From: an uncultured Gammaproteobacteria bacterium
GTDB taxonomy: Bacteria; Patescibacteriota; Patescibacteriia; Magasanikbacterales; GWA2-37-8
Length of the DNA stretch: 64,000 bases
Reading direction: 5' to 3'
Assembly: GCA_964540825.1 (NCBI GenBank)
Contig: CAZINT010000001.1
Location: forward strand, 219,396-283,395
In this document: positions 31,698 to 63,315 of the stretch, piece by piece
Layout: each line of letters starts with the position of its first letter
Position numbering within the stretch: position 1 is the stretch's first letter
Made by a program: the position numbers and the translations under genes
The notes under the pieces: generated by a model
Seen by the model: only the letters and a program-made list of their open reading frames with translations
What the model was told of the DNA's origin: nothing
The model's database searches: none

Positions 31698-31701
31698 ACA
31701 G

Positions 31702-32816: not shown

Positions 32817-32834
32817 GCCTGGGCATGCCTTCGC

Positions 32835-33242: not shown

Positions 33243-33245
33243 ATA

Positions 33246-33644: not shown

Positions 33645-33646
33645 AG

Positions 33647-34840: not shown

Positions 34841-34852
34841 AGGAGTTTCAGC

Positions 34853-35437
34853 TTAATCTTCAAGTAACCAGCTCACCACCAGGAAGCTTACCGCTTCGAG
34901 CCCGATTATGCCAGCGATATAGCGGACATTTTCAAAAAAGATCCCGATGATAATGAACACGCTGCAGCCCAGTATGCCCACGATGCGTGCGCAGCCGCTG
35001 GCGGTTTTGAGCGATTTGACTTTGGTAAGAGCTAAAAAATACGAAACACCAAGACAGAAAATATTGAAAAGAAGTGGTGCCCACCAGGTTGTTTCAGTTC
35101 GTTCAAAAGGGAAGTGGCCAAGTGCCAGCCAGATATTTACCCCAAGCAGCGCGAGGGTAATACTAATTTTACATACTTCGCTAAATGTTTTTGGAACAAT
35201 TGATTTTGCTACTCGATTGGGATCGTTCAAGAAAGTTTTGATACGACCGAAAAAAGCGCGTTCAATGCTAAAGAAAACAAAAAACCAGACAAGAAGGGGG
35301 ATGATAACACTGCTCGTGATATTCTCGACAAAACTTTGAAAAATAAAAAAACCAACGGCATTAAAAACCAAGAGGCTGCCCAGCGCCCCCCAATAGGAAA
35401 GCGGGTATACTTCGTGCATGTGTTGTTGGTGCTGCAT
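34853..35437 (-). CDS. membrane protein (suf-operon associated)
   Basis: 194 aa, multiple TM helices. Confidence 0.4.
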   Translation of the reverse strand: MQHQQHMHEVYPLSYWGALGSLLVFNAVGFFIFQSFVENITSSVIIPLLVWFFVFFSIERAFFGRIKTFLNDPNRVAKSIVPKTFSEVCKISITLALLGVNIWLALGHFPFERTETTWWAPLLFNIFCLGVSYFLALTKVKSLKTASGCARIVGILGCSVFIIIGIFFENVRYIAGIIGLEAVSFLVVSWLLED

Positions 35438-35445
35438 AGTATGTA

Positions 35446-36864: not shown

Positions 36865-36903
36865 TGGTATAGAATAAGGGTGTTACCAGGTTGTAACTGG
36901 TTA

Positions 36904-36932
36904 ATCTTAGCTAATTTTAGCGATTTTGTCAA
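36904..36932 (-). promoter_or_regulatory. consensus sigma70 promoter of suf operon
   Basis: Reverse strand reads TTGACA, 17 nt, TAAGAT. Confidence 0.5.
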
Positions 36933-36935
36933 TCT

Positions 36936-37640
36936 ATGACGGCTCCGGTACCTGAATATACGCTTACCCTCGTCAAGAAGACGGTTATTGCCCGCGATGT
37001 CTTGGAATTTCGGTTTACGAAACCTGCCGGTTTTGTCTTTAAAGCCGGGCAATTTTTGCAATTCCACATTCCGGTTGAAACGGGTATGGTGCTGCGGAGT
37101 TATTCCATAGCTTCGGCGCCCAAGGACGACTACATTGAAATTTGTCTTAAAGTTTTGCCCAACGGCAAAGCATCGGTGTTTTTATCGGCGCTTGAGGTGG
37201 GGGGGAGTGCTGTGGTGCAGGGGCCGGAAGGGCATTTTGTGTGTAAAGACGAACATGCCCCGCATAAAATTTTTATTGCGACCGGCACGGGTCTTGCGCC
37301 TATAATGAGTATGATACCTGAACAGCTTGCTGTGATACGAGAAGGGGCTCAGGTGCATGTGTTGTTTGGTGTTCGAAATGAAGCGGATCTTTTTTGGGCG
37401 GATCGTTTGATACGCTTTGAAAAAGAATATTCCCATTTTTCGCACCACGTGACTTTGTCGCAGCCCGATCAACCAACGGGTTGGCAGGGTTTGGTTGGAC
37501 GCGTTACATCGCATGTTCCACATCATCATTTGGAAGCAGAATATTATTTATGCGGCAGTTTAGAAATGGTGAAAGATGTGCGTAAAATACTGCTTGATAA
37601 AGGTGTCCCAATGAAACAAATTCATTTTGAAATTTTTTAA
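36936..37640 (+). CDS. FNR-like FAD/NAD(P)-binding oxidoreductase
   Basis: RSYSIAS FAD-binding motif, GTGLAPIMS NAD(P)-binding motif. Confidence 0.7.
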   Translation: MTAPVPEYTLTLVKKTVIARDVLEFRFTKPAGFVFKAGQFLQFHIPVETGMVLRSYSIASAPKDDYIEICLKVLPNGKASVFLSALEVGGSAVVQGPEGHFVCKDEHAPHKIFIATGTGLAPIMSMIPEQLAVIREGAQVHVLFGVRNEADLFWADRLIRFEKEYSHFSHHVTLSQPDQPTGWQGLVGRVTSHVPHHHLEAEYYLCGSLEMVKDVRKILLDKGVPMKQIHFEIF

Positions 37641-38011: not shown

Positions 38012-38219
38012 ATTTGCGTCCTAGAATATAGGATAATCGTTCTTTACAAAGGAAATGATGAAGCAGGGCTCCCTGTTTGTGAGCGTTCCTGGTTACGAAG
38101 AAAGCTAATCTTAGCGGTTATTTTTCTCTGTAACGGGAGCTCCCCGGAGCTTAAAGTCTGGAATTCAGACTTTCCCTACTTCTCTTTCCTCAAAACTACA
38201 CACAGGAGTGTACGGTACA

Positions 38220-38804
38220 ATGTTCACCAAAAGTCTCCTCGCCGTGGTTCTGTTCACGCTTCTCGGTCTCTTGTCCTCGGCTCGTGCTGAATGTCACGCA
38301 GCGTCGGCAGGGCCCCACCACAGCATGGAAGTTGCTGTTAGCCTCGGATCTACGATTTGGGTCACTCACCCCGTAGAAGCCACCTTTGGTGCCGTACTCG
38401 GCATGCCGGTCAGCCACGATGGCTGCTGGTGGGTGCGCGGTGCCATCGAGCTCTACAAGCCGATCGGCAACCAGCCGCCTGGTTTCGCCGGCATTCTTTC
38501 GCTCACGCGGCGTATCAACCCCCGTTTGGAGCTTGGTGTTGCCGCCAGTGCCTTGTTGCCGTTTACGGAAGAGGCATACCACCACCCCGAAGAGGGGGCT
38601 GGGCTGCCGCCTCGTGAAGGTGTCATCCTTGTAGCTGGTCCGCAACTTCGCCTTCAGCCGACCGCGGCCTTTCCGACCATCGTCGTTACCCCCATGGGTG
38701 GTTACGAAATGAACGTCGGCAACGTGCTTGGTCTTTCGGTGGAGTTCGAGGCTGACCTCACTGGGGCCGTCTTCGACCTCGTGCACCGCCTGCGTCGCCA
38801 CTGA
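38220..38804 (+). CDS. high-GC secreted beta-rich protein (cassette E)
   Basis: Signal peptide MFTKSLLAVVLFTLLGLLSSARA. Alternating hydrophobic pattern suggests a beta fold. GC-rich. Confidence 0.45.
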   Translation: MFTKSLLAVVLFTLLGLLSSARAECHAASAGPHHSMEVAVSLGSTIWVTHPVEATFGAVLGMPVSHDGCWWVRGAIELYKPIGNQPPGFAGILSLTRRINPRLELGVAASALLPFTEEAYHHPEEGAGLPPREGVILVAGPQLRLQPTAAFPTIVVTPMGGYEMNVGNVLGLSVEFEADLTGAVFDLVHRLRRH

Positions 38805-43654: not shown

Positions 43655-44947
43655 TTGCGTATGAAAAATTTCCTTCAAAAAATTCTCGCCACCCTCGCTC
43701 AAAAAATTCTCGCCAAATATAAACCAAAAATAGTCGGTATTACCGGCTCGGTTGGCAAAACAACAGCCAAGGAAATGACTGCGGCAGTCTTGGGCGCTCG
43801 TTTTCGCGTGGGGCAAACAAGTAAAAATAATAACAATGAGATCGGTGTACCGCTTGCGATACTCGGTGTTGATGAAGCGCCGGGGTCGTCGGTTGTTGCT
43901 TGGGCTGGGGCACTTCTGAAAGGAATTGGGTTATTAGTGTCTGCGAAAAAAAACTATCCGGAAGTTTTGGTTTTAGAAATGGGTGCCGACAAACCCGGCG
44001 ACATTCGCTATCTTGTTGGCTTGGCGCCCTGCACTGTCGGCGTGCTCACCTGGATTTCGCATGCGCATACGGAATTTTTTAAAACCCTGAAACAAATTGC
44101 CGAAGAAAAAAGAAAAATTATTTCACATCTCGAAAAAACCGGTACGGCAGTTTTAAATTACGATAACGAACTTGTTCGAGATTCGGCGGCGGCAGCTAAA
44201 GGAACTGTTATTACCTATGGATTTAAAGATGGTGCAGATTTACGCGCCACAGACATGAAAATTTTATACGATCCGATCACTAGTTGGCCGGCCGGCATTA
44301 CGTGTAAAATTAATTTTAAAGGGCATAGTGTGCCGTTGTTTTTCCCCGGCGTCATTGCAGAGCATATTGTCGGCTCGAGCCTGGCTGCACTGGCAGTCGG
44401 CGATGCCTTTGGTATTAATTTAGTCGAGGCCGCTGGGGCGCTAACCGGGGCAGAGCCGCCAAAGGGCCGGATGCGTTTATTAAAAGGCGTTAAAAATACC
44501 CTGCTTATTGACGACACGTATAACTCGAGTCCGGATGCCGCCAAGTCGGCTCTTAAAACTTTGGGCTCGCTTGAAAACAAGTCGGGCGGCAAGCGTTATG
44601 CAGTCCTCGGGGACATGCTTGAGCTGGGCAGTGAAACCGAGTCAGCGCATCGCGAAGTAGGCTTTACCGTAGCTGAAGTAGGGGTAGATTTTCTCATTAC
44701 CGTTGGCGAAGCCAGTAAAATTACCTGCCACGCTGCCGAGGAAGCGGGCCTTTCGGAAAATCAGATTGCGGCGTTTGCAGACAGTACTGCTGCCGGAAGA
44801 TTTTTGCAGGAAAAAATAAAAGAAGGGGATATGATCTTGGTAAAAGGTTCGCAGGGTGTGCGGATGGAGCGGGTGGTAAAAGAAGTCATGGATGACCCAA
44901 TTATGGCCGAAAAGCTGCTCGTGCGCCAAGAGGCGAAGTGGCTGTAA
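43655..44947 (+). CDS. murF: UDP-MurNAc-pentapeptide synthetase
   Basis: ITGSVGKTTAKEM P-loop, Mur ligase middle and C-terminal domains. Confidence 0.75.
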   Translation: MRMKNFLQKILATLAQKILAKYKPKIVGITGSVGKTTAKEMTAAVLGARFRVGQTSKNNNNEIGVPLAILGVDEAPGSSVVAWAGALLKGIGLLVSAKKNYPEVLVLEMGADKPGDIRYLVGLAPCTVGVLTWISHAHTEFFKTLKQIAEEKRKIISHLEKTGTAVLNYDNELVRDSAAAAKGTVITYGFKDGADLRATDMKILYDPITSWPAGITCKINFKGHSVPLFFPGVIAEHIVGSSLAALAVGDAFGINLVEAAGALTGAEPPKGRMRLLKGVKNTLLIDDTYNSSPDAAKSALKTLGSLENKSGGKRYAVLGDMLELGSETESAHREVGFTVAEVGVDFLITVGEASKITCHAAEEAGLSENQIAAFADSTAAGRFLQEKIKEGDMILVKGSQGVRMERVVKEVMDDPIMAEKLLVRQEAKWL

Positions 44948-44951
44948 AGAA

Positions 44952-44980
44952 TTGACACACGGGCCAAAATAGGCTATACT
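44952..44980 (+). promoter_or_regulatory. consensus sigma70 promoter driving the tRNA-like gene
   Basis: TTGACA (44952-44957), 17 nt, TATACT (44975-44980). Confidence 0.6.
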
Positions 44981-45002
44981 CCTCGTTGTCGAACACCTAC
45001 GT

Positions 45003-45074
45003 GGCCCGTTCGTCTATCAGTTAGGACAGTGCCCTCTCACGGCGCAAAGACGGGTGCGATTCCCGTACGGGCTA
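45003..45074 (+). tRNA. atypical tRNA-like gene, anticodon CUC (Glu-like)
   Basis: Hand-folded cloverleaf. Acceptor ggcccgt/acgggct with G1.U72; D-stem gtct/ggac; anticodon stem gtgcc/ggcgc; loop cuCUCac; T-arm acggg-tgcgatt-cccgt. Deviations are G at position 55 and U at position 19. CCA is not encoded. Confidence 0.45.
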
Positions 45075-45089
45075 CAGAGAATTGAAAAA

Positions 45090-45109
45090 CAGAGCAAGCT
45101 CTGTTTTTT
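45090..45109 (+). terminator. intrinsic terminator after the tRNA-like gene
   Basis: cagagc-aa-gctctg then tttttt. Confidence 0.7.
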
Positions 45110-45250
45110 GTTATTATAGTGTTTTGAGTTGGTAGTGTTTGGTTTGGAGTGGTCATTTATTAACTGGCGTAATTATTGAAAATAAAATTCAATAGTGATA
45201 CTATGAGGGCAGTGAATTTGCTTAAATTAAGGAGTTTTAGGTAAAATATT

Positions 45251-47221
45251 TTGATAAAATGCGGTATGCAAAACTTGTTAAATGATGTACTAAAACTACT
45301 AGAAAGTGATGATGGGTTTTTTGCGGAAAACAAGATGTTAAAAAATGTTGTAACCGAAGCAGCTCTAAAATTGGATACGGCGCTTTTGGAATTACTACAA
45401 AAAAACAATCAAATAAAAAAGCATTTTTTCGTGCAGGCCGCGGGAGTGTGGTTTTTTGATCAAGACAAGTTTATTAAGTTTATCAACAGCAAAGATTTTC
45501 TGCCTGATTCGTTTACCATTTTTAAGAACCATATAGGTCTTACGGACGGTGACGAGTATCTAAAAGATAGTGGAAAAGTGGTTTTGGCGTGGCCGTATAA
45601 AGATTGTGTTTTGGAGGGAGGACAGGACAAAGAAGATGTAAAACAGAGCGAAATTTTTTATAACGAGACCCTTGCGCCGGATGAAATTGACCGGCTGTTC
45701 GAGCCTAAGGTCTTAACCAATCTTAAAAAGATAGATAAAGACGGTGAACACAAGGTCGAGCAAATAAATGAACAGGATAATTTGATAATCAAAGGTAATA
45801 ATCTTTTAGCCCTCCATTCGTTAAAGAAAAAATATCGCGGCAAGGTTAAGCTGATTTACATTGATCCGCCGTATAACACCGGCAGCGATGGTTTTAACTA
45901 TAACGACAGTTTTAACCATTCAACGTGGCTGACTTTTATGAAAAATCGGCTCGAAGTAGCTAAACAGCTGTTGAGTGAGGAGGGTTCAATTTATATTTCA
46001 ATTGATAACAATGAATTGCCATATCTACAGATTTTAATGGATGAAATTTTTGGAAATGAAAATAAGAAAAATATTATTACTGTAAAAAGAAGTGCTGTTT
46101 CAGGTGCAAAAGTTATCAATCCGGGCGTTGTTAATGTTTCGGAATTTATTATTGTATATTCAAAAGATTTTAAGAAGTGGCAAGCTAATAAAGTTTTTAG
46201 AAAAAAAGGTAGGGATGAGAGGTATAACAACTATATAACAAACTTCGAAAGTGAGCCTGAAAAATGGAAATTTTCTTCAGTATTAGACGGTTGGGCTGAG
46301 TCGCTTGGAATAGAGAAAACAAAATTAAAAAAGTATTTTGGCGATAATTATGATGAGGAATTAGAAAAGTTTTATCTGCTTAATGCTCACAGAATAATGC
46401 AGTTCGTAACACTGGATGAGAATGCGGTTTCAGATGAAGTGATAAAAATAAAAAATAAATCTAAAAATGATTCATCCAGAGTACATCGGTTGAAAAGAGA
46501 AAATGGAAAATTAGATTACTTTATATTTAAAGGAAAAGCGATTTTATTTTTAGTAAACAGATTAATGGAAATTGACGGTGAAAAGGTTTTTGCAGAGCCA
46601 TTAACTGATATTTGGGAGGATGTTCTGCCTAACGACTTACATAACGAAGGTGGAGTATCTTTAAAAAAAGGGAAAAAGCCGGAAAAATTAATTCAAAGAA
46701 TAATTGAGCTCAGCAGTAAGTCTGGTGATTTAATTTTAGATTACCATTTAGGAAGCGGGACAACGGCAGCTGTAGCACATAAAATGGGTAGGCGGTATAT
46801 TTGTGTTGAACAGCTGGATTACGGCAACAATGATAGTGTCGTAAGGTTACAAAATACTATAAAAGGTGAGCAAAGCGGAATTTCAAAAGCTGTAAATTGG
46901 AAAGGCGGGGGCTCTTTTGTGTATGCCGAATTAAAGCAATGGAATGAGGAGTATATGCAGGCTATACAGGAGGCCAAAACTGCAAAGGAAATAGCCGCTA
47001 TTTATAAAAAAATGCGTGCTGAAGCATTTTTCCGGTACGAGGTTGATTTAAGCAGGTTTGAACAGAAGCAATTTGACCAATTGACTTTAGACGAGCAGAA
47101 AAAAGTTTTGCTTCTATGTTTGGACAAAAATCATCTGTATGTAAATTACAGTGAAATGGAAGATGCAACCTATAAAATACTTACCGAAGAAAAGAAAATT
47201 AACAAGCAATTTTACAGCTAA
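45251..47221 (+). CDS. mod: type III restriction-modification methyltransferase (Mod)
   Basis: IYIDPPYNTG (DPPY N6-adenine MTase motif). Very AT-rich. Confidence 0.85.
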   Translation: MIKCGMQNLLNDVLKLLESDDGFFAENKMLKNVVTEAALKLDTALLELLQKNNQIKKHFFVQAAGVWFFDQDKFIKFINSKDFLPDSFTIFKNHIGLTDGDEYLKDSGKVVLAWPYKDCVLEGGQDKEDVKQSEIFYNETLAPDEIDRLFEPKVLTNLKKIDKDGEHKVEQINEQDNLIIKGNNLLALHSLKKKYRGKVKLIYIDPPYNTGSDGFNYNDSFNHSTWLTFMKNRLEVAKQLLSEEGSIYISIDNNELPYLQILMDEIFGNENKKNIITVKRSAVSGAKVINPGVVNVSEFIIVYSKDFKKWQANKVFRKKGRDERYNNYITNFESEPEKWKFSSVLDGWAESLGIEKTKLKKYFGDNYDEELEKFYLLNAHRIMQFVTLDENAVSDEVIKIKNKSKNDSSRVHRLKRENGKLDYFIFKGKAILFLVNRLMEIDGEKVFAEPLTDIWEDVLPNDLHNEGGVSLKKGKKPEKLIQRIIELSSKSGDLILDYHLGSGTTAAVAHKMGRRYICVEQLDYGNNDSVVRLQNTIKGEQSGISKAVNWKGGGSFVYAELKQWNEEYMQAIQEAKTAKEIAAIYKKMRAEAFFRYEVDLSRFEQKQFDQLTLDEQKKVLLLCLDKNHLYVNYSEMEDATYKILTEEKKINKQFYS

Positions 47222-47229
47222 AAATTTTT

Positions 47230-49842
47230 ATGGAAATGGAATTTGAGGAAACGCTTGTTAGAAAATTTAATACGCTGTCTGAAGACGATCATTTAGACAA
47301 GGATATCCCCGATTTTGTAACAAAGAACTTAAACCAAAAGTTTGCTATTCGTAAATATCAAAAAGAAGCTTTTGTGCGTTTTTTGTATTATCTAAATCGC
47401 TATAAAAAGGCTGCCCGGCCCGTGCATTTGCTTTTTCATATGGCTACGGGGAGTGGAAAGACGCTATTAATGGCTGCTGACATCCTGTATTTATATTCCT
47501 TGGGCTACCGCAATTTTATATTTTTTGTAAACAGCACAAACATCATTAAAAAAACTCAAAACAATTTTTTGAATAAGTCAGCTGGCAAATATTTGTTTGC
47601 GGAAAAAATTGTATTCAATAATAGGGAAGTTGAAGTTAAGGAAGTGGAAAATTTTGAAGCCACAAATTCCGACAACATCAACATCCTGTTTACAACTATT
47701 CAGGGCCTGCATAGCCGCCTTAGTACTCCATCGGAAAACGCTATTACCTACACGGATTTTGAAAATACCAAGGTGGCTTTTTTGTCCGATGAAGCACACC
47801 ATATAAGTACACTTACAAAGTCAAAATTAGATAAAGAAGAACAAGAAGAAACTAGAAGTTGGGAATATACCGTAAACAGAATTTTTAAATCCAATGAGCA
47901 AAATGTAATGATAGAGTACACTGCTACGGTTGAGCTAAAGCACGAAGCTGTGGCTCGTAAATATGCTGATAAAATCATTTACCAATACACGCTTAAAAAT
48001 TTCCGTGAAGATGGTTTTTCTAAAGATGTGCAACTACTACAGTCGGATTGGGGTGTTAAAACGAGAGCGTTACAGGCTGTAATTTTAAGTCAATACCGCC
48101 GCAAGGTTGCCGAAAAACATAAAATCCAGTTAAAGCCGGTAATGCTTTTTAAGTCCAAACAAATTAAAGAGTCCGAAGAATTTGAGCAATTTTTTTATAA
48201 AATTATTAAAGGTTTGACAGTTGCTGATATTGCTAAGGTTGAAAGCGCTAGTACAGATGGCATACTAAATCAGGCGTTTAATTATTTTACGGCTAATAAA
48301 ATTATTGCTACTCATTTAGTTAAGGAGATACAGGAAGATTTTGCGCCGGAAAAATGTTTAATTATAAATAGCAAGGCTGATAGCGAAGAAAAACAGATTA
48401 AAGTAAATAGTCTTGAGGACTATAATAATGAAATACGGGTTATTTTTACTACAAATATGCTTAATGAGGGTTGGGATACCCTTAATCTTTTTGATATTGT
48501 AAGATTATACGAAACCAGAGACGCCAAGGCTGGAAAGGGAGGTAGCACGACTATATCGGAAGCGCAATTAATCGGTCGTGGCGCAAGATATTATCCATTT
48601 ACAACGGGCTTGGATCAGGAAAAAGACAGACGCAAGTATGACGGCGCATTAGATAATGAATTGCGAATTTTGGAAGAGCTGCACTATCACAGTTTGACAG
48701 ACAGCCGGTATATTGCCGAATTACGCAACGAACTTGTGAATATCGGTATAACGCCTGATAATCGGGTAGTTAGGAAAGTAAAGATAAAGGATAGTATAAA
48801 GAAGACGCCGTTTTGGAACAGCGGGCTGATTTTTACTAATAAGCTGCAAAAAAATGATTTTGGCAAGGTAAAAACCTTGAGTGATATTGTTCAAAATTCT
48901 TTATTCCAATATAGAATTAAAACCGGCCATTCGTCTGAAACAGGAATTTTTGATAGCGCACAGCCGTTGCCGGCGGAAGAATTACGTAAGAAAATTTTTA
49001 AGCTGAGTGATTTTGAAAAAAATGTTTTAAGGAAAGCATTGGATAAAATTGATTTTTATCATTTTAATAATTTATCTGTATTTTTCCCGAATCTAAAATC
49101 CATTGACGAATTTATAACATCAAAGGATTATTGCGGTCTTGTACAGGTTGAAATTTCGGCTAAAAATGGTAGGCTGGATAATTTGACCATTGCTGATAAA
49201 TACGGTGCAGCCCTGGACGCCTTTAAAGCCTTAGCGGGTAAAATTTCTGTCGGTAACAGTGAATATATTGGCACCAAGGAGTTTTATGCTCAAAGTATTA
49301 AGACCGTGGTACAGGATAAGACTTTAGAAATTTTGATTGGCGGGGATGAAAAAGAGTTTGGCATTGCGATGAGCGAAACCACGAATGACAATTTACGAAT
49401 GGATCTCAGCACGCAGGACTGGTATTTGTATAATGAAAATTATGGCACTTCAGAAGAAAAATATTTTATCCAGTTTATCCGGCAGGCAATGGATGACCTG
49501 AAGAAAAAATATGACGACGTTTATCTACTGAGGAATGAGCGGCTCTTCAAGATTTACCGCTTCAGCGACGGGCAGGCGATAGAGCCAGATTTTGTGCTCT
49601 TTGCCAAAACAAAAAACAGCAAAAATGCAATTTCGTTTCAACTTTTTGTCGAGCCAAAAGGCGGTAACCGACTTTTGGAAGACGGGTGGAAAGAAGAATT
49701 TCTGCAAGAAATAGAAACAGAATTTAGAGTTGAAACTCTGTTTGAAAAGGGTAGATACAAACTTATCGGCCTGCCTTTTTATAATGAGCAAAAAACTAAA
49801 CAGGAATTTTTTAAGATTTTTAGCGAGAAATTAAGTTTATAG
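47230..49842 (+). CDS. res: type III restriction endonuclease (Res), SF2 helicase-like
   Basis: Walker A ATGSGKT, DEAH-box LSDEAHHI, helicase C motifs. 9 nt after mod. Confidence 0.85.
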   Translation: MEMEFEETLVRKFNTLSEDDHLDKDIPDFVTKNLNQKFAIRKYQKEAFVRFLYYLNRYKKAARPVHLLFHMATGSGKTLLMAADILYLYSLGYRNFIFFVNSTNIIKKTQNNFLNKSAGKYLFAEKIVFNNREVEVKEVENFEATNSDNINILFTTIQGLHSRLSTPSENAITYTDFENTKVAFLSDEAHHISTLTKSKLDKEEQEETRSWEYTVNRIFKSNEQNVMIEYTATVELKHEAVARKYADKIIYQYTLKNFREDGFSKDVQLLQSDWGVKTRALQAVILSQYRRKVAEKHKIQLKPVMLFKSKQIKESEEFEQFFYKIIKGLTVADIAKVESASTDGILNQAFNYFTANKIIATHLVKEIQEDFAPEKCLIINSKADSEEKQIKVNSLEDYNNEIRVIFTTNMLNEGWDTLNLFDIVRLYETRDAKAGKGGSTTISEAQLIGRGARYYPFTTGLDQEKDRRKYDGALDNELRILEELHYHSLTDSRYIAELRNELVNIGITPDNRVVRKVKIKDSIKKTPFWNSGLIFTNKLQKNDFGKVKTLSDIVQNSLFQYRIKTGHSSETGIFDSAQPLPAEELRKKIFKLSDFEKNVLRKALDKIDFYHFNNLSVFFPNLKSIDEFITSKDYCGLVQVEISAKNGRLDNLTIADKYGAALDAFKALAGKISVGNSEYIGTKEFYAQSIKTVVQDKTLEILIGGDEKEFGIAMSETTNDNLRMDLSTQDWYLYNENYGTSEEKYFIQFIRQAMDDLKKKYDDVYLLRNERLFKIYRFSDGQAIEPDFVLFAKTKNSKNAISFQLFVEPKGGNRLLEDGWKEEFLQEIETEFRVETLFEKGRYKLIGLPFYNEQKTKQEFFKIFSEKLSL

Positions 49843-49851
49843 TTTTAATTT

Positions 49852-50760
49852 GTGTCCCTCTTCAAAATCACCAATCAAAAAACCAAGAAAATTCTTCCTG
49901 CTAAAGTTCTTAAAGAACAATACATACATTCTTTATTTGAAGCTAACCTTGAGGAATTACTCGGTATATACTTTTTGGCACACGAATATAGCACCTCGGC
50001 AGGCGGTAGAATCGATACGCTTGGAGTAGATAAAAACGGTTCACCGTGCGTGATTGAATATAAAAAAGGCCAAAACGACAATGTTATTAATCAAGGATTG
50101 TCGTATTTACGCTGGCTTTTGGATCACAAAGCCGATTTTGAAAGGCTGTGCCAAAACAAAAATTTTAAAGTGAGTATTGATTGGACTTCGCCTCGAGTTA
50201 TTTGTATCGCTGAAAACTATAATAAGTTTGATATCGATACCGTAGAAATATTGCCCATAAAAATTGAATTGTTAAAATACGGCTTGTATGATGGCGGGTT
50301 GTTGCAGTTGGAACACGAGAAACACGACAATATAAAAGTAAGTACAGGTGAAATATATAAAAATTCCAAGAAAGACAATAAGGTAGTGGGCGAAAAGCTT
50401 CAAAAAGAATATAGCGTTGATCATCATTTGCAAGGCAAAAAAGAAGAAATCAAAAAAATCTTTTTTGATATTAGGGAATGGGTCACTAACCTTGATAAGG
50501 ATATTGTTGAGGAACCGAAAAAGTTATATGTCGCCTATAAGTTAGCCACCAATTTTGTTGATGTCGAAATTCGGAGTAAAGATATAAAACTATTTTTGAA
50601 TATACCAAAGGGGAAATTAAATGATCCTCTGGGGTTGGCTCGAGATGTTTCGAGCGTTGGGCATTGGGGAAATGGCGATTATGAGGTAAAAATAACTACT
50701 AAGAGCGATTTAGAGCCTGTGTATGGCCTGGTGCGGCAGAGTTATGAATTTAATAAATAA
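49852..50760 (+). CDS. PD-(D/E)xK nuclease-like protein (DUF91/NucS-like N-terminus plus C-terminal domain of unknown function)
   Basis: GGRIDTLGVDKNGSPCVIEYKKGQ (D...ExK). 9 nt after res. Same AT-rich composition. Confidence 0.45.
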   Translation: MSLFKITNQKTKKILPAKVLKEQYIHSLFEANLEELLGIYFLAHEYSTSAGGRIDTLGVDKNGSPCVIEYKKGQNDNVINQGLSYLRWLLDHKADFERLCQNKNFKVSIDWTSPRVICIAENYNKFDIDTVEILPIKIELLKYGLYDGGLLQLEHEKHDNIKVSTGEIYKNSKKDNKVVGEKLQKEYSVDHHLQGKKEEIKKIFFDIREWVTNLDKDIVEEPKKLYVAYKLATNFVDVEIRSKDIKLFLNIPKGKLNDPLGLARDVSSVGHWGNGDYEVKITTKSDLEPVYGLVRQSYEFNK

Positions 50761-50797
50761 GCATGCCTAGTAATAGGTGTTTTAGAAGTTCAAGTAT

Positions 50798-51364
50798 ATG
50801 AGTAGAGAATTCTCAGAAAGAAGACAAGAAGTAGTAACCTCGCAGCGTTTTGAAATAGTGCTTAGTTCCGAAAAGGATTGTGCAATGCTTGAAACGTGGT
50901 TAAGTACTCTTATTGGTACTGAAGCGGCAGAGCAATGTGTTTTTGCTATGCGCAGTACGGTGCAAAAGGACTTTACGAATCACTGCAAAGACGCAACGCA
51001 AGAATTGGGTAAGGCCTTGGCTGAGCGATTTGGCGGCGAAGAATCTTTTTTTGATGTAGTCCCGGGGGCATCTTTTAGCGATGTTAGGAGCTATGCTCCC
51101 TTAGACAAGACGAGGTATCGCGGAGATTATCATAGTGTTGGTCTTTTAGAATTAGTTTCACAGCACAAAGAGTCTTTTTGTCTTATAGTGGATCTTACCT
51201 TTTATACAGTTTCGCCTGATGTAAAAAAGAATGGAGTGTTAGTTGCTTCCACTCCAGGTGGGCACGGCGAGGCTCTGAAGATGCTTGAAAATGAGTATGG
51301 TGGTTCATGGAAAGTGGAATTTAAATTTAATCCTCAAAAAAATAATTTTGAATTTGAAGGGTAG
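50798..51364 (+). CDS. hypothetical protein
   Basis: 188 aa. Last gene of the island before a terminator. Confidence 0.35.
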   Translation: MSREFSERRQEVVTSQRFEIVLSSEKDCAMLETWLSTLIGTEAAEQCVFAMRSTVQKDFTNHCKDATQELGKALAERFGGEESFFDVVPGASFSDVRSYAPLDKTRYRGDYHSVGLLELVSQHKESFCLIVDLTFYTVSPDVKKNGVLVASTPGGHGEALKMLENEYGGSWKVEFKFNPQKNNFEFEG

Positions 51365-51388
51365 GGAATATTTTGGATGAATAAAAAA

Positions 51389-51414
51389 GACAAACTCTAA
51401 GTTTGCCTTTTTTA
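51389..51414 (+). terminator. intrinsic terminator
   Basis: gacaaact-ctaa-gtttgcc then ttttttat. Confidence 0.6.
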
Positions 51415-51525
51415 TATAGATGAATTATTGAAGGGGCAATTACTTATCGCCTCAATAGTACCCCCGAAATGGTTTTGATTAACGTTGTCAGAATGTCGGG
51501 GTTGCATTCTGAGGTGGCTGTGCGC

Positions 51526-52872
51526 TCAGCGCCGGGTCAGGATGACGCGGAGGTTCTTGGGGGAAAGGCCGGTCGAGGCGTGCATACGAACACTCGCGGG
51601 GTCGATTACGCGGATGTTGAAGAGCGCGAGGGCCAGGCCGATGATGTAGCTTCCTTCAAGAAGGGCGAGCCGTTCGCCGAGGCAGTTCTGGGTGTCGTGC
51701 CAGAAGGGGTAGTAGTTCCACTTGGCCGGTTCGCCGCTATCAAACCGCTCCGGGGCGAATTGCTCGGGCCTATTCCAGTAGCGCGGGTCGCGGTGGGAGA
51801 GGAAGCTCGAGAAGAGCACGTTCGTCTTGGGCGGCAGGAGGTACGGGCCGAGCTCGGTCCAGTCCGCCGTGCTCCGCATGTTGAGCCAATTGGGCGGATA
51901 GAGGCGGAGCGACTCTTTGAGGACGAGCTTGAGGTCGCGGAAGCGGCTATCCTTGGCGAGGTTGGCCGAAGCGCCGCTCGTCAGGAGGTAGTTGCCGCAC
52001 TCCCGCGTGCGTGCCAGCCACTCAGCGTTGCCACTGAGCAACCAGAACGTTGAGGCGGCCATGCTGGCGGTGGTGACGTGGCCAGCGAAGACCGTGCTGA
52101 GCGCCAGGCTCTCGATGAGATTATCAGGCAGCTCCTGACCGTTTTGGCGGTCTTTGAGGAGGGCGCCGACGAGTCCGCTCGCGGATATGTCGCCGTGCTT
52201 GATGAGCGACTGAACGAGATCGTGGAGCCGCCGCTCTTCGTAGATGTATCGCCGGGACCGCTCGGTGAGCGGGAAGTTCCGGAGGAACAGGTGACTGAGG
52301 GGGTTCTGAAACCCGCGGGCCGACTCCTCAAACAGGAAGTTGAGTCCGTCGAGAAGATCCGCGTCGAGACCGCGCAGGCCCGAACTCCCGAACACGACGA
52401 CATCGAGGATGTCGAGCACGAGGAAGTTGCAGAGCTCCAAGAGGTCCACGGGCTTCCCGGTCGGCCACTTGTTGATCGTGGCGAGGATGCGTGTGTAGAT
52501 GTTGTCCATCATCGCCTTGAGGTTCGTACCGCCGAGCTGGGGGCCGAGTTTGCGGCGCTGGACAAGGTGGTTCGGTCCGTCGGTTGTGAAGATGGATTCA
52601 TTGCCGAGAATCGGCTTCATGATGCGGCGCACGAGGCTGGGGCGCACGAAGTTCTGGCTGGTCGAGATCTCGCTGAGGTCGTCGGGGCAGAGGGTGAGCA
52701 CCATCCGCATTGGCCAGTGAGCGAGGGTGACTCGCTCGCGAAGGACGGTGTTCCCGACCATGCCCGTGGCCCCGCGCAGATAGCGAAGCGGGTCGCGCTG
52801 CATTTCGCGCTGAAACGTGAGCAGCGGCACCAATCCGCCGTAGGCAGGTGGAAGGCGTTTTTTTCTCCCCAT
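51526..52872 (-). CDS. cytochrome P450 (atypical), high-GC cassette F
   Basis: 448 aa. I-helix FAGHVTTAS, K-helix ESLRLYPP (ExxR), FAPERF (PERF), Cys-pocket PFWHDTQNCLG (FxxGxRxCxG with the G and R substituted). AGGAGA upstream. GC3 near-saturated. Confidence 0.7.
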   Translation of the reverse strand: MGRKKRLPPAYGGLVPLLTFQREMQRDPLRYLRGATGMVGNTVLRERVTLAHWPMRMVLTLCPDDLSEISTSQNFVRPSLVRRIMKPILGNESIFTTDGPNHLVQRRKLGPQLGGTNLKAMMDNIYTRILATINKWPTGKPVDLLELCNFLVLDILDVVVFGSSGLRGLDADLLDGLNFLFEESARGFQNPLSHLFLRNFPLTERSRRYIYEERRLHDLVQSLIKHGDISASGLVGALLKDRQNGQELPDNLIESLALSTVFAGHVTTASMAASTFWLLSGNAEWLARTRECGNYLLTSGASANLAKDSRFRDLKLVLKESLRLYPPNWLNMRSTADWTELGPYLLPPKTNVLFSSFLSHRDPRYWNRPEQFAPERFDSGEPAKWNYYPFWHDTQNCLGERLALLEGSYIIGLALALFNIRVIDPASVRMHASTGLSPKNLRVILTRR

Positions 52873-52983
52873 GGGCTTGTTTCTCCTTGTCCGTATATAG
52901 CACTAACCGACCATAGCATAAGGCGAATATGGCCGCAACTGCCCCAGTTGCCCTCCTAAAACTGCTGTGCTATAGTCAAAAAC

Positions 52984-54093
52984 ATGAAACTGATTGATTC
53001 ACCCGTATCGCACCGATTCCATACGACCACCCAAAATGCCTGGGAAGCTATGTACCAGGCCATGCTTAAGGCTGAAAAATCTATTTTTTGGGAAGTGTAT
53101 ATTTTAAATGGCGGAGGGCCGGGTAAGCGATTTATCGACGTCCTTTCTGAAAAGGCTGAGGCCGGTGTGGAAGTAAAAATTATTGTTGATGGGCTCGGCA
53201 GCGTTTCGCTTGGCGGTCAAGCCGAAGCAAAACTGAGGGCGTCCGGTGTTTCGATCGTATGGTACAACAGTCTGAGCTTTAAACCGAATCCGTGGCAGTG
53301 GATTCGTAATTTGTGGATCCGCAATCATCGGAAAATTTTAATCATTGATCAAAAAACGGCTTTTATTGGCGGGGTGAATGTCGATGAATCGGCAACGACG
53401 TGGGACGATTTATTTTTGGAGATGCAAGGGCCGGTAGTACATTCACTTGTTAGGGCATTTGCTAAAAGCTATATTCGATCGGGCGGCAGCAGGCAAAAAA
53501 TTCGCCATCTTTTGAAACACCATGTACGTCTTGACTTAAAACAATTACGGCAAAAAATAACCGTCTTAATTCATACTCCAAAATCACTGCGGGCAGTTTC
53601 ATCGCTGTGGTATTTTTATCGTTTTGCGATGAATAGGGCAAAAAAAACTGTTACCCTACTGACGCCGTATTATGTGCCGGATAGACGTTTTTTGCAGCTG
53701 ATTCGTGAAACACACAAGCGGGGTGTACGAGTAAATATTTTAATACCGGCACGCAGCGATCATCGGTTTATGGAGTATATAGCTGAATCATTTTATGAGC
53801 TGACGGCGGAAGCCGGTGCTAATTTGTATTTACTTGAGAGAATGAATCATGGCAAAGCAATGAGCGTTGACGGTAAGCTTGGTTTTGTGGGGAGCGCTAA
53901 TATTACGCCGCGCAGCTTTTCTTTGAATGAAGAGGCGGGGGTTTATTTTACTGATACGGCAATGGTGCGTGATTTAGAAAGTGTTTTAGAAAATTGGCGC
54001 CTGAAAGCAGAGCGGGTGGTGGCAGCAAAAAATCGCAAGTGGTATGATCGCTTGTTGCGTCCGGTAGTTGCTTGGTTTAAAAATTATGTCTAA
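52984..54093 (+). CDS. cls: cardiolipin synthase / phospholipase-D family (two HKD motifs)
   Basis: HRKILIID and NHGKAMSVDG...GSANI. Promoter TTGCCC, 17 nt, TGTGC TATAGT ending 11 nt before the ATG, so essentially leaderless. Confidence 0.8.
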   Translation: MKLIDSPVSHRFHTTTQNAWEAMYQAMLKAEKSIFWEVYILNGGGPGKRFIDVLSEKAEAGVEVKIIVDGLGSVSLGGQAEAKLRASGVSIVWYNSLSFKPNPWQWIRNLWIRNHRKILIIDQKTAFIGGVNVDESATTWDDLFLEMQGPVVHSLVRAFAKSYIRSGGSRQKIRHLLKHHVRLDLKQLRQKITVLIHTPKSLRAVSSLWYFYRFAMNRAKKTVTLLTPYYVPDRRFLQLIRETHKRGVRVNILIPARSDHRFMEYIAESFYELTAEAGANLYLLERMNHGKAMSVDGKLGFVGSANITPRSFSLNEEAGVYFTDTAMVRDLESVLENWRLKAERVVAAKNRKWYDRLLRPVVAWFKNYV

Positions 54094-54141
54094 AAAAGTA
54101 TTCTACCAATCATAACTGGACCCGCACCCTTAGCGGAACGC

Positions 54142-55338
54142 ATGCGGCCGCGGACGTTTAGTGAATTTGTAGGGCAGCAAAAAGTGGCAGGTCCAAAAAC
54201 AGTATTGCGACGCCTTATTGAGCAGCACGAATTGACGTCGCTTATTTTTTGGGGACCGCCGGGAGTGGGGAAGACAACGCTCGCGCAGCTAATCGCCGCT
54301 GAAAGTAAGGCTGTATTCGTGAGCGTGTCGGCGGTGATGAGCGGTAAAGACGAACTGCGTCGCTGTCTCGCGGATGCGGCGGAACGTCTGGAGAAAAATG
54401 GCGAACGGACTATTTTGTTTATTGACGAAATTCATCGTTGGAATAAAGCGCAGCAGGATGGGCTCTTGCCCGCAGTCGAGCGGGGAATTGTAACCCTCAT
54501 TGGCGCCACTACCGAAAATCCGTCGTTTGAAATTGTGGGCGCGCTTCTTTCGCGCTCGCGGGTTATTATTTTGGAACCACTGGCCAGTAGCGATATCGTG
54601 CATATTTTAGAAGAGGCGTTGAAAGATGCAGAGCGAGGACTGGGTAGTTTTGCAGTGGAAGCTTCAACCGAAACACTGGAAGTGTTGGCTGATCTCGCTA
54701 GTGGTGACGCGCGCACTGCACTCAATGCGCTTGAGATTGCTGTAAAAAGTAGTGCCAAAGGAGCTAATCAAAAAATTCAAGTAACGAATGAGATCATCAA
54801 AGAGGCCCTGCAGCGAACACATTTAATTTTTGATAAGCAAGGAGAAGAATTTTACAATGCCATTTCCGCGCTCCATAAATCGATGCGCGGATCTGATGCT
54901 GATGCCTCGCTGTATTGGCTGGCGCGCATGCTCGAAGGCGGGGCAGATCCGTTGTATATCGCCCGGCGCGTGCTTCGGTTCGCGAGTGAAGATATAGGCA
55001 TGGCTAACAGTGAAGCTATGATCCAGGCGAATGCTGCCTACGATGCCTGTCACAAGATTGGTTATCCGGAGTGCAGTGTGCATTTGGCGCAGGCCGTGGT
55101 GTACTGCGCAAAATCAGCCAAATCTAATCTGCTCTACAAAGCCTACGCCGCCGCAGCGGAAGATGCGCGCGCGACGTCACGCCTGGGTGTGCCGATTCAT
55201 TTGCGTAATGCACCGACGAAGTTCATGAAAAATATTGGCTACGGTAAAGACTATAAGTATAACCCGGATTATGAGGGGCCGGTAGAGCAGGAATATTTTC
55301 CGAGGGAATTAAAAGGAAGAAAGTACTTAAAAAAATAA
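54142..55338 (+). CDS. rarA: replication-associated recombination protein A (AAA+ ATPase)
   Basis: GPPGVGKTTLA Walker A, MgsA-type C-terminal domain. Confidence 0.9.
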   Translation: MRPRTFSEFVGQQKVAGPKTVLRRLIEQHELTSLIFWGPPGVGKTTLAQLIAAESKAVFVSVSAVMSGKDELRRCLADAAERLEKNGERTILFIDEIHRWNKAQQDGLLPAVERGIVTLIGATTENPSFEIVGALLSRSRVIILEPLASSDIVHILEEALKDAERGLGSFAVEASTETLEVLADLASGDARTALNALEIAVKSSAKGANQKIQVTNEIIKEALQRTHLIFDKQGEEFYNAISALHKSMRGSDADASLYWLARMLEGGADPLYIARRVLRFASEDIGMANSEAMIQANAAYDACHKIGYPECSVHLAQAVVYCAKSAKSNLLYKAYAAAAEDARATSRLGVPIHLRNAPTKFMKNIGYGKDYKYNPDYEGPVEQEYFPRELKGRKYLKK

Positions 55339-55366
55339 TCCCGTGTTCGCGGGATTATTTTTTTAT
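55337..55366 (+). terminator. intrinsic terminator
   Basis: aatcccg-tgtt-cgcgggatt then attttttta. Confidence 0.7.
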
Positions 55367-55680
55367 TTGCCATTGGTGTCGTTTTTCGAATTCCCCTGCT
55401 CGGTCATTCCCGCGCAGGCCTGTCAGGTAGGCAGGCGGGAATCGAGGGCTCCTGACACATAGCCTGCTTGTTACCTTTTTGACAGCAAAAAGGTAACCGA
55501 AAAACTGTCCGAGCTATTGTTCGCTTCCTCGTACTGCCACAGCTCGTTTTCACTGCGACACTAAAACTCGTTTCACTCAAACATTAGTGTCGCTGCAAAG
55601 CACCGTTCAAACTCGCTGGGCCAGTACGGGTCGCGCCCAAGTGCTCGGAGTAGTGAAGTGAGTAAGGTGTTTGGTTTTTA

Positions 55681-56199: not shown

Positions 56200-56670
56200 C
56201 TAACGCAAGCCCGGCGCCTCGCACTGGAGGTAGCCGTCGTGCGGGACGACGACGAGCCCCCTTTGGCAGGATTGCCTGCACTCGTAGCTGCCGCCGACCA
56301 AGTCGACGACCCACGGGGGACGGCAGGCCTTGTCCGCGTTCGGGTCGGCGTACAGGCCGGATGGGATCGGCGGGGTCTGGTGGTTGTTCCGGCATTCCAT
56401 GGCGTTCATGGCGCCGGTTCCAGGGATTGGCAGCTCGATGTAGCCCGGCGGACAGCTCATGAGCGGCTGACCCTGCTCATCGGTCATGAGCTGGTAGGCC
56501 TGGGTCGCTGGGTGCGCCAGGTAGCGACCCGGCGCGGACACCCACTTGTACAGGGTCTGCCGCGGGTTGGGCGATGGCGGCCGGGTGAAATCGCTGCCGC
56601 TGCTGTACGTCTCCGCACAGCCGGCCATCATCATGGCGCACAAAAGAACGGTGTAAAGAGCGTATCGCAT
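56200..56670 (-). CDS. high-GC Cys-rich lipoprotein (cassette G)
   Basis: Lipobox MMAGC. 156 aa, 10 Cys. GGAAGGAAG SD upstream. Confidence 0.45.
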   Translation of the reverse strand: MRYALYTVLLCAMMMAGCAETYSSGSDFTRPPSPNPRQTLYKWVSAPGRYLAHPATQAYQLMTDEQGQPLMSCPPGYIELPIPGTGAMNAMECRNNHQTPPIPSGLYADPNADKACRPPWVVDLVGGSYECRQSCQRGLVVVPHDGYLQCEAPGLR

Positions 56671-62166: not shown

Positions 62167-63315
62167 CTAGCCGCCGTAGGAGTAGACGATCGGCCTGAGC
62201 GGGAGGGTCTGGCCCGAGGCGGTCAGACCCGCGAGAACTCCGTCACTCCAGCTGATGCCGTTGTTCGGCACGCTGACCTCGAGGCTCTGTGCCCCGCCGG
62301 TCCCGAAGTCGGTGGTGTCGAACGTGCACGTGATGGTCTTGCTCTGACCAGAGGAGATGGTGGAGGCGATGGGGAGGTTCAGGTTCCCGTTGATGGGGTC
62401 GCCCTTCCTGTAGAGGTGGCTACCGATCAGCGAGCCGTTCGAGTAGCACGCCAGCAGCCGGTCGTTGTTGACATTCTCGATGCTCGACTTCAGCGCGAGC
62501 TTCAGCGAGCTGACCGGGGTCGTGTAGTTGCCGTTGTTCAGGACGTTGGTGACGACGACCTTCACGATCGTCTGGGTCGCAGAGGGCGACGACGGACCTT
62601 TGGGGCTGTCGCTGGCCCACTCGACCCCGATCTTGGCGCGGTAGGTGGTGGCCGTGGCCGCGTGTGCCCCGAGCGCTGGGGACCCGGTCTTGTTGTCCTT
62701 GACGACCACCTTCAGCGTCTGCGCGGTCTTGACGTTCACCGCGGTGATTGGGGTGAAGTTCTCGAGCGGGGCGAGGATGGCCGGGGTGGCCTGCTGTCCG
62801 GTGGTGGTGAACCCCTCGTTGTAGTCGGCGATGTCGACCAGCTGGCTGATGTAGCGGCAGCTGTTGTTGGGCACGAACAGGTTGAGGTTGGGGTTGATCG
62901 CGTGGCTGTAGCCCGCCGCGATCTCCTGGCCGTTCACGTACTGCTCGAAGTTGGCCGCGGTCGCGCCGATGGGCGCCCCGTTCTCGTCGATGTACCGCGC
63001 GTTGCGGAAGATGGGCGGCTGCATGCCGTTGTAGCGCAGCGAGCTGATCACCTTCTCGAGGCGTCCACCGGCCTCCGGCGTGCCCGTCACGCAGATGGTG
63101 TAGGTGGCGACCTTGACGCCGATGGCGCCCATGACGTAGTTGGTGGGGCCGGGCGTGCTCTGATCGATCGCGACCGTGAGCGTGCCCGGGTTCTCGTAGT
63201 CGGGCAGGTTGAGGGTCGGGACCGGCTTGTCCGGCTCGTCGCCGGTCACCATCCCGCCGCAGCCGAAGGCGGCGGTGAGGGCCAGGATCATGAGGTGCTT
63301 GTGCATCTGCTTCAC
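62167..63315 (-). CDS. high-GC beta-rich lipoprotein, 382 aa (cassette H)
   Basis: Lipobox AAFGCGG. GAAGGAG SD 8 nt upstream. Thr/Asn/Gly-rich beta pattern. GC3 near-saturated. Confidence 0.5.
   Translation of the reverse strand: MKQMHKHLMILALTAAFGCGGMVTGDEPDKPVPTLNLPDYENPGTLTVAIDQSTPGPTNYVMGAIGVKVATYTICVTGTPEAGGRLEKVISSLRYNGMQPPIFRNARYIDENGAPIGATAANFEQYVNGQEIAAGYSHAINPNLNLFVPNNSCRYISQLVDIADYNEGFTTTGQQATPAILAPLENFTPITAVNVKTAQTLKVVVKDNKTGSPALGAHAATATTYRAKIGVEWASDSPKGPSSPSATQTIVKVVVTNVLNNGNYTTPVSSLKLALKSSIENVNNDRLLACYSNGSLIGSHLYRKGDPINGNLNLPIASTISSGQSKTITCTFDTTDFGTGGAQSLEVSVPNNGISWSDGVLAGLTASGQTLPLRPIVYSYGG

Follow-up and report, generated by a model that had tools for sequence, protein, structure and literature searches.

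The P450 gene and its surroundings

The window analysed here is a 64-kb stretch of DNA. Its minus strand carries, at positions 51526 to 52872, an intact and full-length coding sequence for a cytochrome P450 of 448 aa without a membrane anchor. The first-pass annotation had placed the gene at 51469–52983. This interval encloses the real ORF, but what begins at 51469 is spurious: the ORFs of 194 and 293 aa read from there on the plus strand run antisense to the gene and are artefacts of its GC-rich DNA. The P450 frame could be aligned from its N-terminal RDPL region to the C-terminus, with no motif-breaking indels. A Shine-Dalgarno (SD) motif, AAGGAG, is found in the sequence 10 nt 5′ of the P450 ATG (52883–52888, minus strand).

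RNA folding of positions 51380–51530 yielded a short hairpin (51488–51512, minus strand) that directly follows the P450 stop codon and lies on the border of the high-GC stretch. A second, terminator-like structure was recognized at 51381–51415 from the fold and the sequence, and consists of a 16-bp perfect stem between an A-tract and a T-tract. Its MFE is −40.2 kcal/mol (z = −3.65), and none of 200 shuffles matched its folding. This hairpin sits in low-GC, host-like sequence and, according to the predicted fold, could act as a terminator in both directions, common to the P450 gene and a convergent ORF of 188 aa.

The GC content changes sharply at the gene and tracks the ORF, with values of 0.26–0.45 before position 51500, 0.59–0.69 within the gene (51501–52800) and 0.46 after 52900. 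The GC3 of the P450 gene is 0.84, as compared with 0.36–0.57 (about 0.45) in backbone genes. The jump in GC coincides with the borders of the ORF, in agreement with the initial description of a high-GC cassette. That description had also called the context otherwise free of P450s, and a six-frame scan of the window returned no second one. No redox-partner gene is adjacent, as had been stated: the neighbours of the P450 gene are, according to Pfam, the unknown 188-aa protein and a PLD-family gene. The FNR-like reductase and the ferredoxins that had been listed at 36936, 30305 and 31097 of the backbone are all present. They comprise an FNR-family flavoprotein gene (36936–37640), a single-cluster ferredoxin of the Fer4_13/15 type (30305–30679) and a thioredoxin-like 2Fe-2S ferredoxin (31097–31423). 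All three genes lie beside the SUF Fe-S assembly locus, 14–21 kb from the P450 gene.

The host was identified from the backbone. RarA, encoded 1.3 kb from the P450, has its best matches (66–86% identity) in MAGs of Candidatus Magasanikbacteria, and by these sequence matches the host is a Candidatus Magasanikbacteria genome of the CPR. Searches with tblastn further revealed that the order PLD-RarA-TsaE-GatA is kept across the related loci L002 to L023. In the same type of search, none of 80 syntenic loci contained a P450 gene. Since all syntenic relatives do without it, the P450 is dispensable to the lineage.

The P450 gene is part of a variable region of 7.9 kb (45077–52947), which was delimited by homology with L002, the nearest relative, and annotated with Pfam and PADLOC. 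The left anchor of this region is a tRNA-Glu(CTC) gene (45003–45075, plus strand; ARAGORN and Rfam), and the same tRNA is found in the same place in L002. The right anchor is the PLD-family backbone gene (52984–54093, plus strand; Pfam and the tblastn synteny across L002 to L023), which is divergent from the P450 gene. Nucleotide homology with L002 stops at 45076, at the 3′ end of the tRNA-Glu gene, and restarts at 52948, 36 bp before the PLD gene; in L002, other genes occupy this interval. Variable DNA that extends from the 3′ end of a tRNA gene and differs in content between relatives is what characterizes a tRNA-linked genomic island. In the window, the region contains a low-GC defence module, made up of type III Mod (45251–47221), type III Res (47230–49842), a PDC-S18/DUF5655 protein (49852–50760) and the 188-aa protein (50798–51364). 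The P450 gene comes after this module, in the last 1.4 kb of the region at its PLD-proximal end. No integrase was detected by Pfam or PADLOC among the ORFs of the variable region, and a scan of positions 44900–53100 for direct or inverted repeats, those of the tRNA 3′ end included, turned up none that was convincing at either the cassette or the island. A role for the P450 in defence was rejected, as the gene had no PADLOC hit.

The product is a P450 with an altered heme loop

The first-pass annotation had recognized a P450 from its motifs, and the PF00067 profile agrees: the protein scored 109.7 bits, well above the Pfam gathering cut-off of 22.8, with residues 57–432 matching profile positions 46–446 of 462. 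Among solved structures, the best sequence match was CYP46A1 (E = 4.5e-23, residues 104–429), and Cys397 aligned in register with the heme-ligand Cys of that enzyme. The AlphaFold model of the 448-aa protein has a P450 fold, with a pLDDT of 88 and a pTM of 0.90. Structure prediction had been suggested as a means of inspecting the heme pocket; the overall fold is predicted confidently, but the confidence falls to 74 across residues 391–400, which form the Cys loop. Together, the profile match and the model confirm that 51526–52872 encodes a genuine cytochrome P450. The nearest solved folds were those of CYP175A1, CYP97C1, CYP184A1 and CYP51, with CYP120A1 also among them, and the modelled structure places the protein in the CYP175/CYP97/CYP184/CYP51/CYP102 structural class.

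All of the motifs quoted at the outset were found: AGHVTT at residues 263–268, ESLRLYPP at 320–327, FAPERF at 372–377 and PFWHDTQNCLG at 389–399. The ExxR and PERF/PxRx motifs, which make up the E-R-R triad, are complete (E320, R323 and F372-P374-R376). Overall, the protein has kept Thr267, Phe390, Cys397, Gly399, Glu320, Arg323, Phe372, Pro374, Arg376, Arg106, His360 and Arg361, and three of the four usual heme propionate contacts are retained. The full FxxGxRxCxG signature is absent, as the loop reads F-W-H-D-T-Q-N-C-L-G, in which the Phe, the Cys and the last Gly are intact.

Motif residues were counted in an alignment of the P450 with its 160 nearest single-domain relatives. Residues F390, C397 and G399, which the P450 has, are invariant or near-invariant across these relatives. 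Position 393 is Gly in 159 relatives and Ala in one, and is Asp in this P450. At position 395, Arg is found in 141 relatives, His in 18 and Lys in one, and this P450 has Gln. The claim that the Gly of the Cys pocket and the propionate-binding Arg have been replaced was thereby substantiated, D393 and Q395 each occurring in 0/160 relatives. The P450 also has Trp at position 391, which is Gly, Ser or Ala in 154 relatives and Trp in none. In the I-helix, A-G-H-V-T-T stands where AGx(D/E)T is expected. The P450 had been said to lack the acid–alcohol pair; the acid is indeed gone, replaced by Val266, but the alcohol, Thr267, is retained. Position 266 is occupied by Glu or Asp in 150 of the 160 relatives and by Val in one. 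The I-helix acid is missing from ten relatives (6%), all of which have a normal Cys loop, and P0039, which is among the closest relatives, has Ala at this position. Both substitutions in the Cys loop are thus without precedent in the clan of this P450, whereas a minority of relatives (6%) have likewise lost the I-helix acid.

The P450 is an orphan that has diverged broadly

An exhaustive HMMER search of 1.84 × 10⁹ representatives of 15 × 10⁹ proteins returned 24,537 hits, none of which exceeded 32% full-length identity except the protein itself. One multi-domain protein reached 37% identity over a stretch of only 117 residues. A word-indexed search of 5.8 × 10⁹ proteins also yielded nothing above 32% full-length identity, and nothing nearer was found in plasmids, phages (tblastn) or viral contigs. 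The cluster of the P450 at 90% identity consists of itself alone, and one allele is known. Partial matches to NCBIfam models scored 120 bits for ApyO (cut-off 525), 109 bits for the CYP170 type (cut-off 700) and 92 bits for pentalenene oxygenase (cut-off 800). Because these scores are far under the cut-offs of 525–800 bits, the P450 belongs to none of the ApyO, CYP170A1-type and pentalenene oxygenase families.

The CYP family assignment that had been envisaged came out negative, in that no named family fits a protein whose best full-length identity is 32%. A new CYP family is recognized when a sequence is less than 40% identical to the members of every named family, formal naming being a matter for the nomenclature committee; by this rule, the sequence would represent a new family. 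Its named relatives come from Polyangiaceae, Ktedonobacterales, Bryobacteraceae and Quadrisphaera and are too distant for a donor to be named. The nearest family relative is encoded in a genome of 65% GC.

The P450 is also divergent with respect to its relatives. It retains 81% of the columns that are conserved at ≥90%, as compared with a mean of 96%, and ranks second lowest of 161 sequences. In a held-out family HMM, it scored 261 bits versus 497 ± 88 for held-out relatives, or 2.7 s.d. below them. Its mean identity to the relatives is 26%, versus 34.5% among the relatives themselves. At 118 conserved columns, the P450 has 11 never-seen residues, as compared with 1.9 ± 2.0. These residues are spread over helices I, J and K and the Cys loop, and their clustering at the active site was not significant (p = 0.13). 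A ‘targeted remodelling’ of the heme site is thus unsupported. The lack of clustering indicates broad divergence rather than a handful of active-site edits, and relaxed constraint would predict the same pattern.

High-GC genes of the window share a translation signal

The window contains six further gene-sized patches of high GC, with GC3 values of 0.66–0.99. They are located at 7426–8205, 8668–9834, 10219–10938 and 38208–38804 and, on the minus strand, at 56200–56670 and 62167–63315. They encode mostly signal-peptide or lipoprotein orphans; homology searches found no homolog for 8668–9834 and only the self-match for 62167–63315. The sister cassettes have sub-threshold NCBIfam motif matches to myxobacterial families (MXAN_6577-like Cys-rich and TraB), which we treat as a lead to a donor and not as evidence. 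Codon usage (RSCU) of the P450 gene correlates with that of three other cassettes at r = 0.88–0.93, as compared with 0.12 for the backbone, although such likeness is partly automatic among GC-rich genes. Third positions are C-rich in all of the cassettes; in the P450 gene, C3 is 0.55 and G3 is 0.29. As a side observation, singletons attributable to HGT are common in MAGs.

The cassettes are further set apart by their translation signals. Scored as a motif 4–12 nt before the start codon, an SD sequence precedes all seven high-GC cassettes, including the P450 gene, versus 0/33 backbone genes (Fisher p = 5e-8). The nucleotide at −1 is T in 24 of these 33 backbone genes. In L002 and L019, SD motifs precede 4/4 hand-picked cassettes, and an unbiased survey of related loci found them at three of five high-GC ORFs versus 15 of 209 backbone ORFs (p = 0.005). 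With the motif present in the cassettes and absent from the backbone of the window, the translation signal of the P450 gene, whether imported with it or maintained since, is foreign to the host.

Two related loci bear on the age of the cassettes. The gap between TsaE and GatC holds a high-GC lipoprotein gene in both the window (GC3 0.86) and L002 (GC3 0.83). The two lipoproteins are homologous and 30% identical, whereas their flanks are 67–86% identical. In L019, a different high-GC ORF occupies the exact slot of the P450 gene. The lipoprotein pair and the L019 ORF imply that high GC3 alone is no proof of recent arrival and, given the persistence of high GC3 in the lipoprotein pair, a ‘recent transfer’ of the P450 gene is not secure. 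Literature searches on GC islands in Magasanikbacteria and on the source sequencing runs found nothing relevant. The class of SD-led, high-GC cassettes may be a more interesting lead than the P450 itself.

Proposed function and origin

We propose, with a probability of roughly 0.5, that the P450 gene is an intact accessory gene that was acquired horizontally, that it encodes a soluble heme-thiolate P450 of a new CYP family, and that it is carried as a single-gene cassette by a CPR host. The protein would still bind heme through Cys397. As a rule, CPR bacteria neither make heme nor have an aerobic metabolism; if this genome, like most of them, cannot make heme, the cofactor would be scavenged.

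In P450s, the residue two before the Cys normally forms a salt bridge with a heme propionate, the Gly four before the Cys allows the loop to pack against the heme on the redox-partner docking face, and the conserved Phe, here Phe390, tunes the heme potential. Substitution of Gly by Asp and of Arg by Gln would cost a positive charge and introduce a negative one, rendering the proximal face, where acidic ferredoxins normally dock, two units more negative, and would add bulk; the same face also gains Trp391. Docking of an acidic ferredoxin should be weakened and the seating of the heme may be perturbed. As neither D393 nor Q395 was seen in the 160 relatives, even the binding of heme may be impaired. 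Protons for O2 activation are supplied by the I-helix acid (PMC11842817), a task that Val266 cannot perform. With its remodelled proximal face and no I-helix acid, the P450 probably does not run the classical, ferredoxin-coupled monooxygenase cycle efficiently. We favour an oxygenase that is slow or couples poorly, or an enzyme driven by peroxide or acting on a pre-oxidised substrate. The substrates of the top fold neighbours are carotenoids, retinoids, fatty acids and sterols, which hints at a hydrophobic, isoprenoid- or lipid-like substrate. As an SD-led gene in an SD-less genome, the P450 gene may be poorly translated.

A serious rival, which we regard as possible rather than probable, is that the gene is a passenger whose product neither binds heme nor catalyses a reaction in this host. 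The frame would then be intact either through short residence or because high-GC sequence rarely yields stop codons, and the antisense ORFs of 194 and 293 aa are chance frames of just this kind in the GC-rich segment. The changes in the Cys loop and the I-helix would reflect relaxed constraint. Such a pseudo-enzyme would account for the rank of second lowest of 161 in conserved-column retention, the held-out HMM score 2.7 s.d. below the relatives, the 11 unprecedented and unclustered residues spread over three helices and the Cys loop, and two loop residues that no relative has; it would also suit a singleton that is missing from all 80 related loci. However, the frame of 448 codons is alignable end to end with the family, the thiolate Cys and all of the structural-core motifs are retained, and the fold is predicted with confidence. 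Moreover, useless DNA is usually deleted quickly in reduced genomes, and divergence within an AT-leaning host should have pulled GC3 under 0.84.

The divergence could instead have arisen inside the CPR if the P450 gene were a long-term resident, belonging to a class of fast-evolving genes, specific to the lineage, that have high GC3 and an SD motif and that Magasanikbacteria maintain at fixed slots. We consider this origin unlikely. It would be consistent with the SD motifs in the window cassettes (7/7), in the hand-picked set (4/4) and in the unbiased scan (3/5 versus 15/209), with the C-rich third positions and codon usage that the cassettes have in common, with the faster divergence of the syntenic lipoprotein pair than of its flanks, with the high-GC ORF in the same slot of L019 and with the orphan status of all cassettes tested. 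Nevertheless, no known process keeps GC3 at 0.85–0.99 in single genes of a bacterium of 45% GC. Furthermore, the closest relative lacks the P450, the family is otherwise found in high-GC genomes and the resemblance in codon usage is, as noted, partly automatic.

A joint reading would combine a functional enzyme with such a gene class, and we hold it to be distinctly improbable. It takes the protein to be a working heme-thiolate P450 that uses scavenged heme and has an unseen proximal loop, Trp-His-Asp-Thr-Gln where Gly-Gly-Gly-Pro-Arg is usual. It also takes the cassettes to be an undescribed class of Magasanikbacteria genes: orphan, single-gene, C3-rich and SD-led, at fixed slots in SD-less genomes, and with faster turnover and divergence than their flanks. 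If true, it would imply either a dedicated process of gene capture or replacement, or an accessory genome that is separately translated and compositionally maintained.

The first-pass annotation had likened the P450 to CYP152 and CYP74, as an enzyme of the peroxygenase or isomerase type, which would require neither O2 activation nor redox partners, and this placement is now very doubtful. In its favour are the missing I-helix acid, the loss of the proximal basic residue, the lack of a redox-partner gene nearby and the example of P450nor, in which partner-free chemistry goes together with a non-acid residue and a following Thr. However, the defining features of both groups are absent. In CYP152 enzymes, an Arg-Pro dipeptide takes the place of the acid–alcohol pair (PMC5377825); this P450 has Val266-Thr267, and its partial match to the CYP152 profile NF053744 scored 29 bits against a cut-off of 600. 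CYP74 enzymes have a nine-residue insertion in the heme loop, have lost AGxD/ET and contain a catalytic Asn in the I-helix groove (PMC5764023, PMC8124189). Here, F390 and C397 stand at the canonical spacing of seven residues, the alignment with the relatives has no gap between them, and A263-G264-H-V-T267-T268 is kept, with Thr and not Asn at the alcohol position. The profile and fold rankings agree with this outcome. The protein may still be a non-classical P450 in a general sense, but the specific placement in CYP152 or CYP74 fails.

Finally, a chimera of assembly or binning, in which a P450 gene from a co-occurring high-GC organism was misjoined to CPR sequence, can be dismissed even though the composition switches abruptly at the gene borders: two contigs assembled separately from different runs, one of 1,812 bp from SRR11567528 (100% identical to the window across 51090–52901) and one of 10.6 kb from SRR11567520 (100% identical over the 7,643 bp of 47984–55626), reproduce both junctions, which are thus real, and syntenic CPR genes lie on both sides of the insert.

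CPR bacteria, or Patescibacteria, are usually regarded as fermentative, cofactor-poor symbionts, and in the literature that could be searched we found no report of a P450 from them. Cytochrome b5-type heme proteins, however, have a patchy, HGT-driven distribution in the CPR (bioRxiv 10.1101/2021.11.17.468889). If, as in the reading that we favour, the P450 is an active accessory enzyme, CPR cells would be able to put scavenged heme to oxidative chemistry on a lipid or isoprenoid derived from a host or the environment. An active P450 would also let enzymologists see, in a natural experiment, how much change the Cys-ligand loop tolerates (Gly to Asp and Arg to Gln) while thiolate ligation is kept. 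The coincidence of high GC3, SD motifs and orphan status in single-gene inserts of an SD-less genome offers a clean and testable way into the question of how foreign or fast-evolving genes are acquired and expressed by reduced genomes. A dead passenger would merely be a well-documented case of transient HGT.

Comparison with known P450s

The solved P450s that most resemble the model in fold are 19–23% identical to it in sequence. They include CYP175A1, a beta-carotene hydroxylase of Thermus; CYP97C1, a carotene epsilon-hydroxylase; CYP51; and CYP184A1 and CYP120A1, whose structures contain bound oleic acid and retinoic acid, respectively. This P450 differs from these neighbours in being without the I-helix acid. 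The comparison with CYP46A1, the cholesterol 24-hydroxylase, is similar: that enzyme has FSLGHRSCIG and AGHETS where this P450 has FWHDTQNCLG and AGHVTT.

P450nor (CYP55A1), the fungal nitric-oxide reductase, dispenses with both O2 activation and a redox-partner protein. Its I-helix contains AGNATM (PDB 1CL6), so that, as in AGHVTT, a small non-acid residue is followed by the conserved Thr. P450nor is a precedent for this combination in a partner-free P450; it has no other tie to the present protein. The CYP152 enzymes, such as P450BS-beta and OleT, share with this P450 the fold, a departure from the acid–alcohol pair and the lack of a dedicated redox partner beside the gene. The CYP74 clan, which includes allene oxide synthase and hydroperoxide lyase, shares the fold and a non-canonical heme-binding loop. 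What is known here is the P450 superfamily; what is new is a sequence less than 40% identical to any family, a Cys loop unseen in its relatives and a host in the CPR, a phylum-level group for which our literature search found no P450.

High-GC cassettes and their translation-start signals

In addition to the cytochrome P450 gene (51526-52872, minus strand), the window carries six gene-sized high-GC patches, or cassettes: 7426-8205, 8668-9834, 10219-10938 and 38208-38804 on the plus strand, and 56200-56670 and 62167-63315 on the minus strand. Together with the P450, these make up 11.5% of the window. The six have a GC content of 0.61-0.70 and a GC3 of 0.66-0.99, with C-rich third positions, in a host genome of 46% GC. 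Their products are mostly signal-peptide or lipoprotein orphans, and two of the six contain thrombospondin-type-3-like DxDxDG motifs. The cassettes at 8668-9834 and 62167-63315, the two that were searched, showed no homolog apart from themselves.

Start-codon contexts were inspected across the whole window. An AGGAG-type Shine-Dalgarno (SD) motif lay 4-12 nt 5' of a start codon in all seven cassettes, P450 included, but in none of the 33 backbone genes (Fisher p = 5e-8), 24 of which have T at -1. In the cassettes starting at 7426, 10219, 38208 and 62167, the SD indicates an internal start a few codons 3' of the mechanical ORF start. Related Magasanikbacteria loci followed the same trend, with SD motifs at 3/5 high-GC ORFs versus 15/209 backbone ORFs.

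Two of the high-GC genes were also poorly captured by automated annotation. Positions 3486-4976 of a separately assembled 10.6-kb Logan contig (L082) correspond to 51469-52959 of the window, and here the gene caller reported, in place of the P450, a pair of antisense ORFs of 194 and 293 aa. Cassette 8668-9834 had no entry at all in the protein database. Genes of this class are therefore readily missed or mis-stranded, and surveys may consequently undercount them.

Genomic surroundings of the P450

Within the window, the sole candidate electron donors accompany the SUF Fe-S assembly locus at 30305-37640. This locus encodes SufB, SufS, a NifU-like protein, SufC and a DUF59/FeS_assembly_P protein. 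Alongside lie genes for two ferredoxins, one of the Fer4_13/15 single-cluster type and the other a thioredoxin-like 2Fe-2S protein, as well as for an FNR-family flavoprotein and a NUDIX protein. A low-GC (0.35-0.37) defence island occupies 45251-50760, directly after tRNA-Glu, and encodes a methyltransferase and a restriction enzyme, both of type III, as well as a DUF5655 protein that scores 323 bits against PDC-S18, a candidate defence family in PADLOC. It is followed by a gene for a 188-aa protein of no assigned family (50798-51364).

Occupancy of the same slots in related genomes

In the nearest related locus, L002, the TsaE-GatC gap holds a high-GC lipoprotein gene (12511-12951, minus strand) homologous to the lipoprotein gene at 56200-56670, which sits in the corresponding gap of the window. 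The two genes, from two species, have GC3 values of 0.83 and 0.86, respectively, and share only 30% identity (E 3e-12), compared with 67-86% for neighbouring genes. Either this slot has been refilled repeatedly or the gene class evolves fast with GC3 maintained; we know of no mechanism that would keep GC3 high in such a class. In L019, from another Magasanikbacteria genome, a 300-aa orphan ORF (272-1174, plus strand; GC 0.63, GC3 0.82) with a strong internal AAGGAGG SD lies directly 5' of the PLD gene, the slot occupied by the P450 in the window.

Several related loci (L002, L003, L008, L011, L012, L014, L015, L017, L021-L023 and L060) come from TPA MAGs titled 'uncultured Gammaproteobacteria bacterium', labels that look wrong. 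Their RarA proteins are 66-86% identical to those of named Candidatus Magasanikbacteria MAGs, with which most also share PLD-RarA-TsaE-GatA synteny.

As to donors, there is a faint hint in the sequence matches that the high-GC class could derive from Myxococcota-like sources. One distant P450 relative is labelled Polyangiaceae, and cassettes 10219-10938 and 7426-8205 gave myxobacterial-family NCBIfam matches, all below threshold: the MXAN_6577-like cysteine-rich protein family (25.8 bits versus a cut-off of 100) and the outer-membrane exchange protein TraB.
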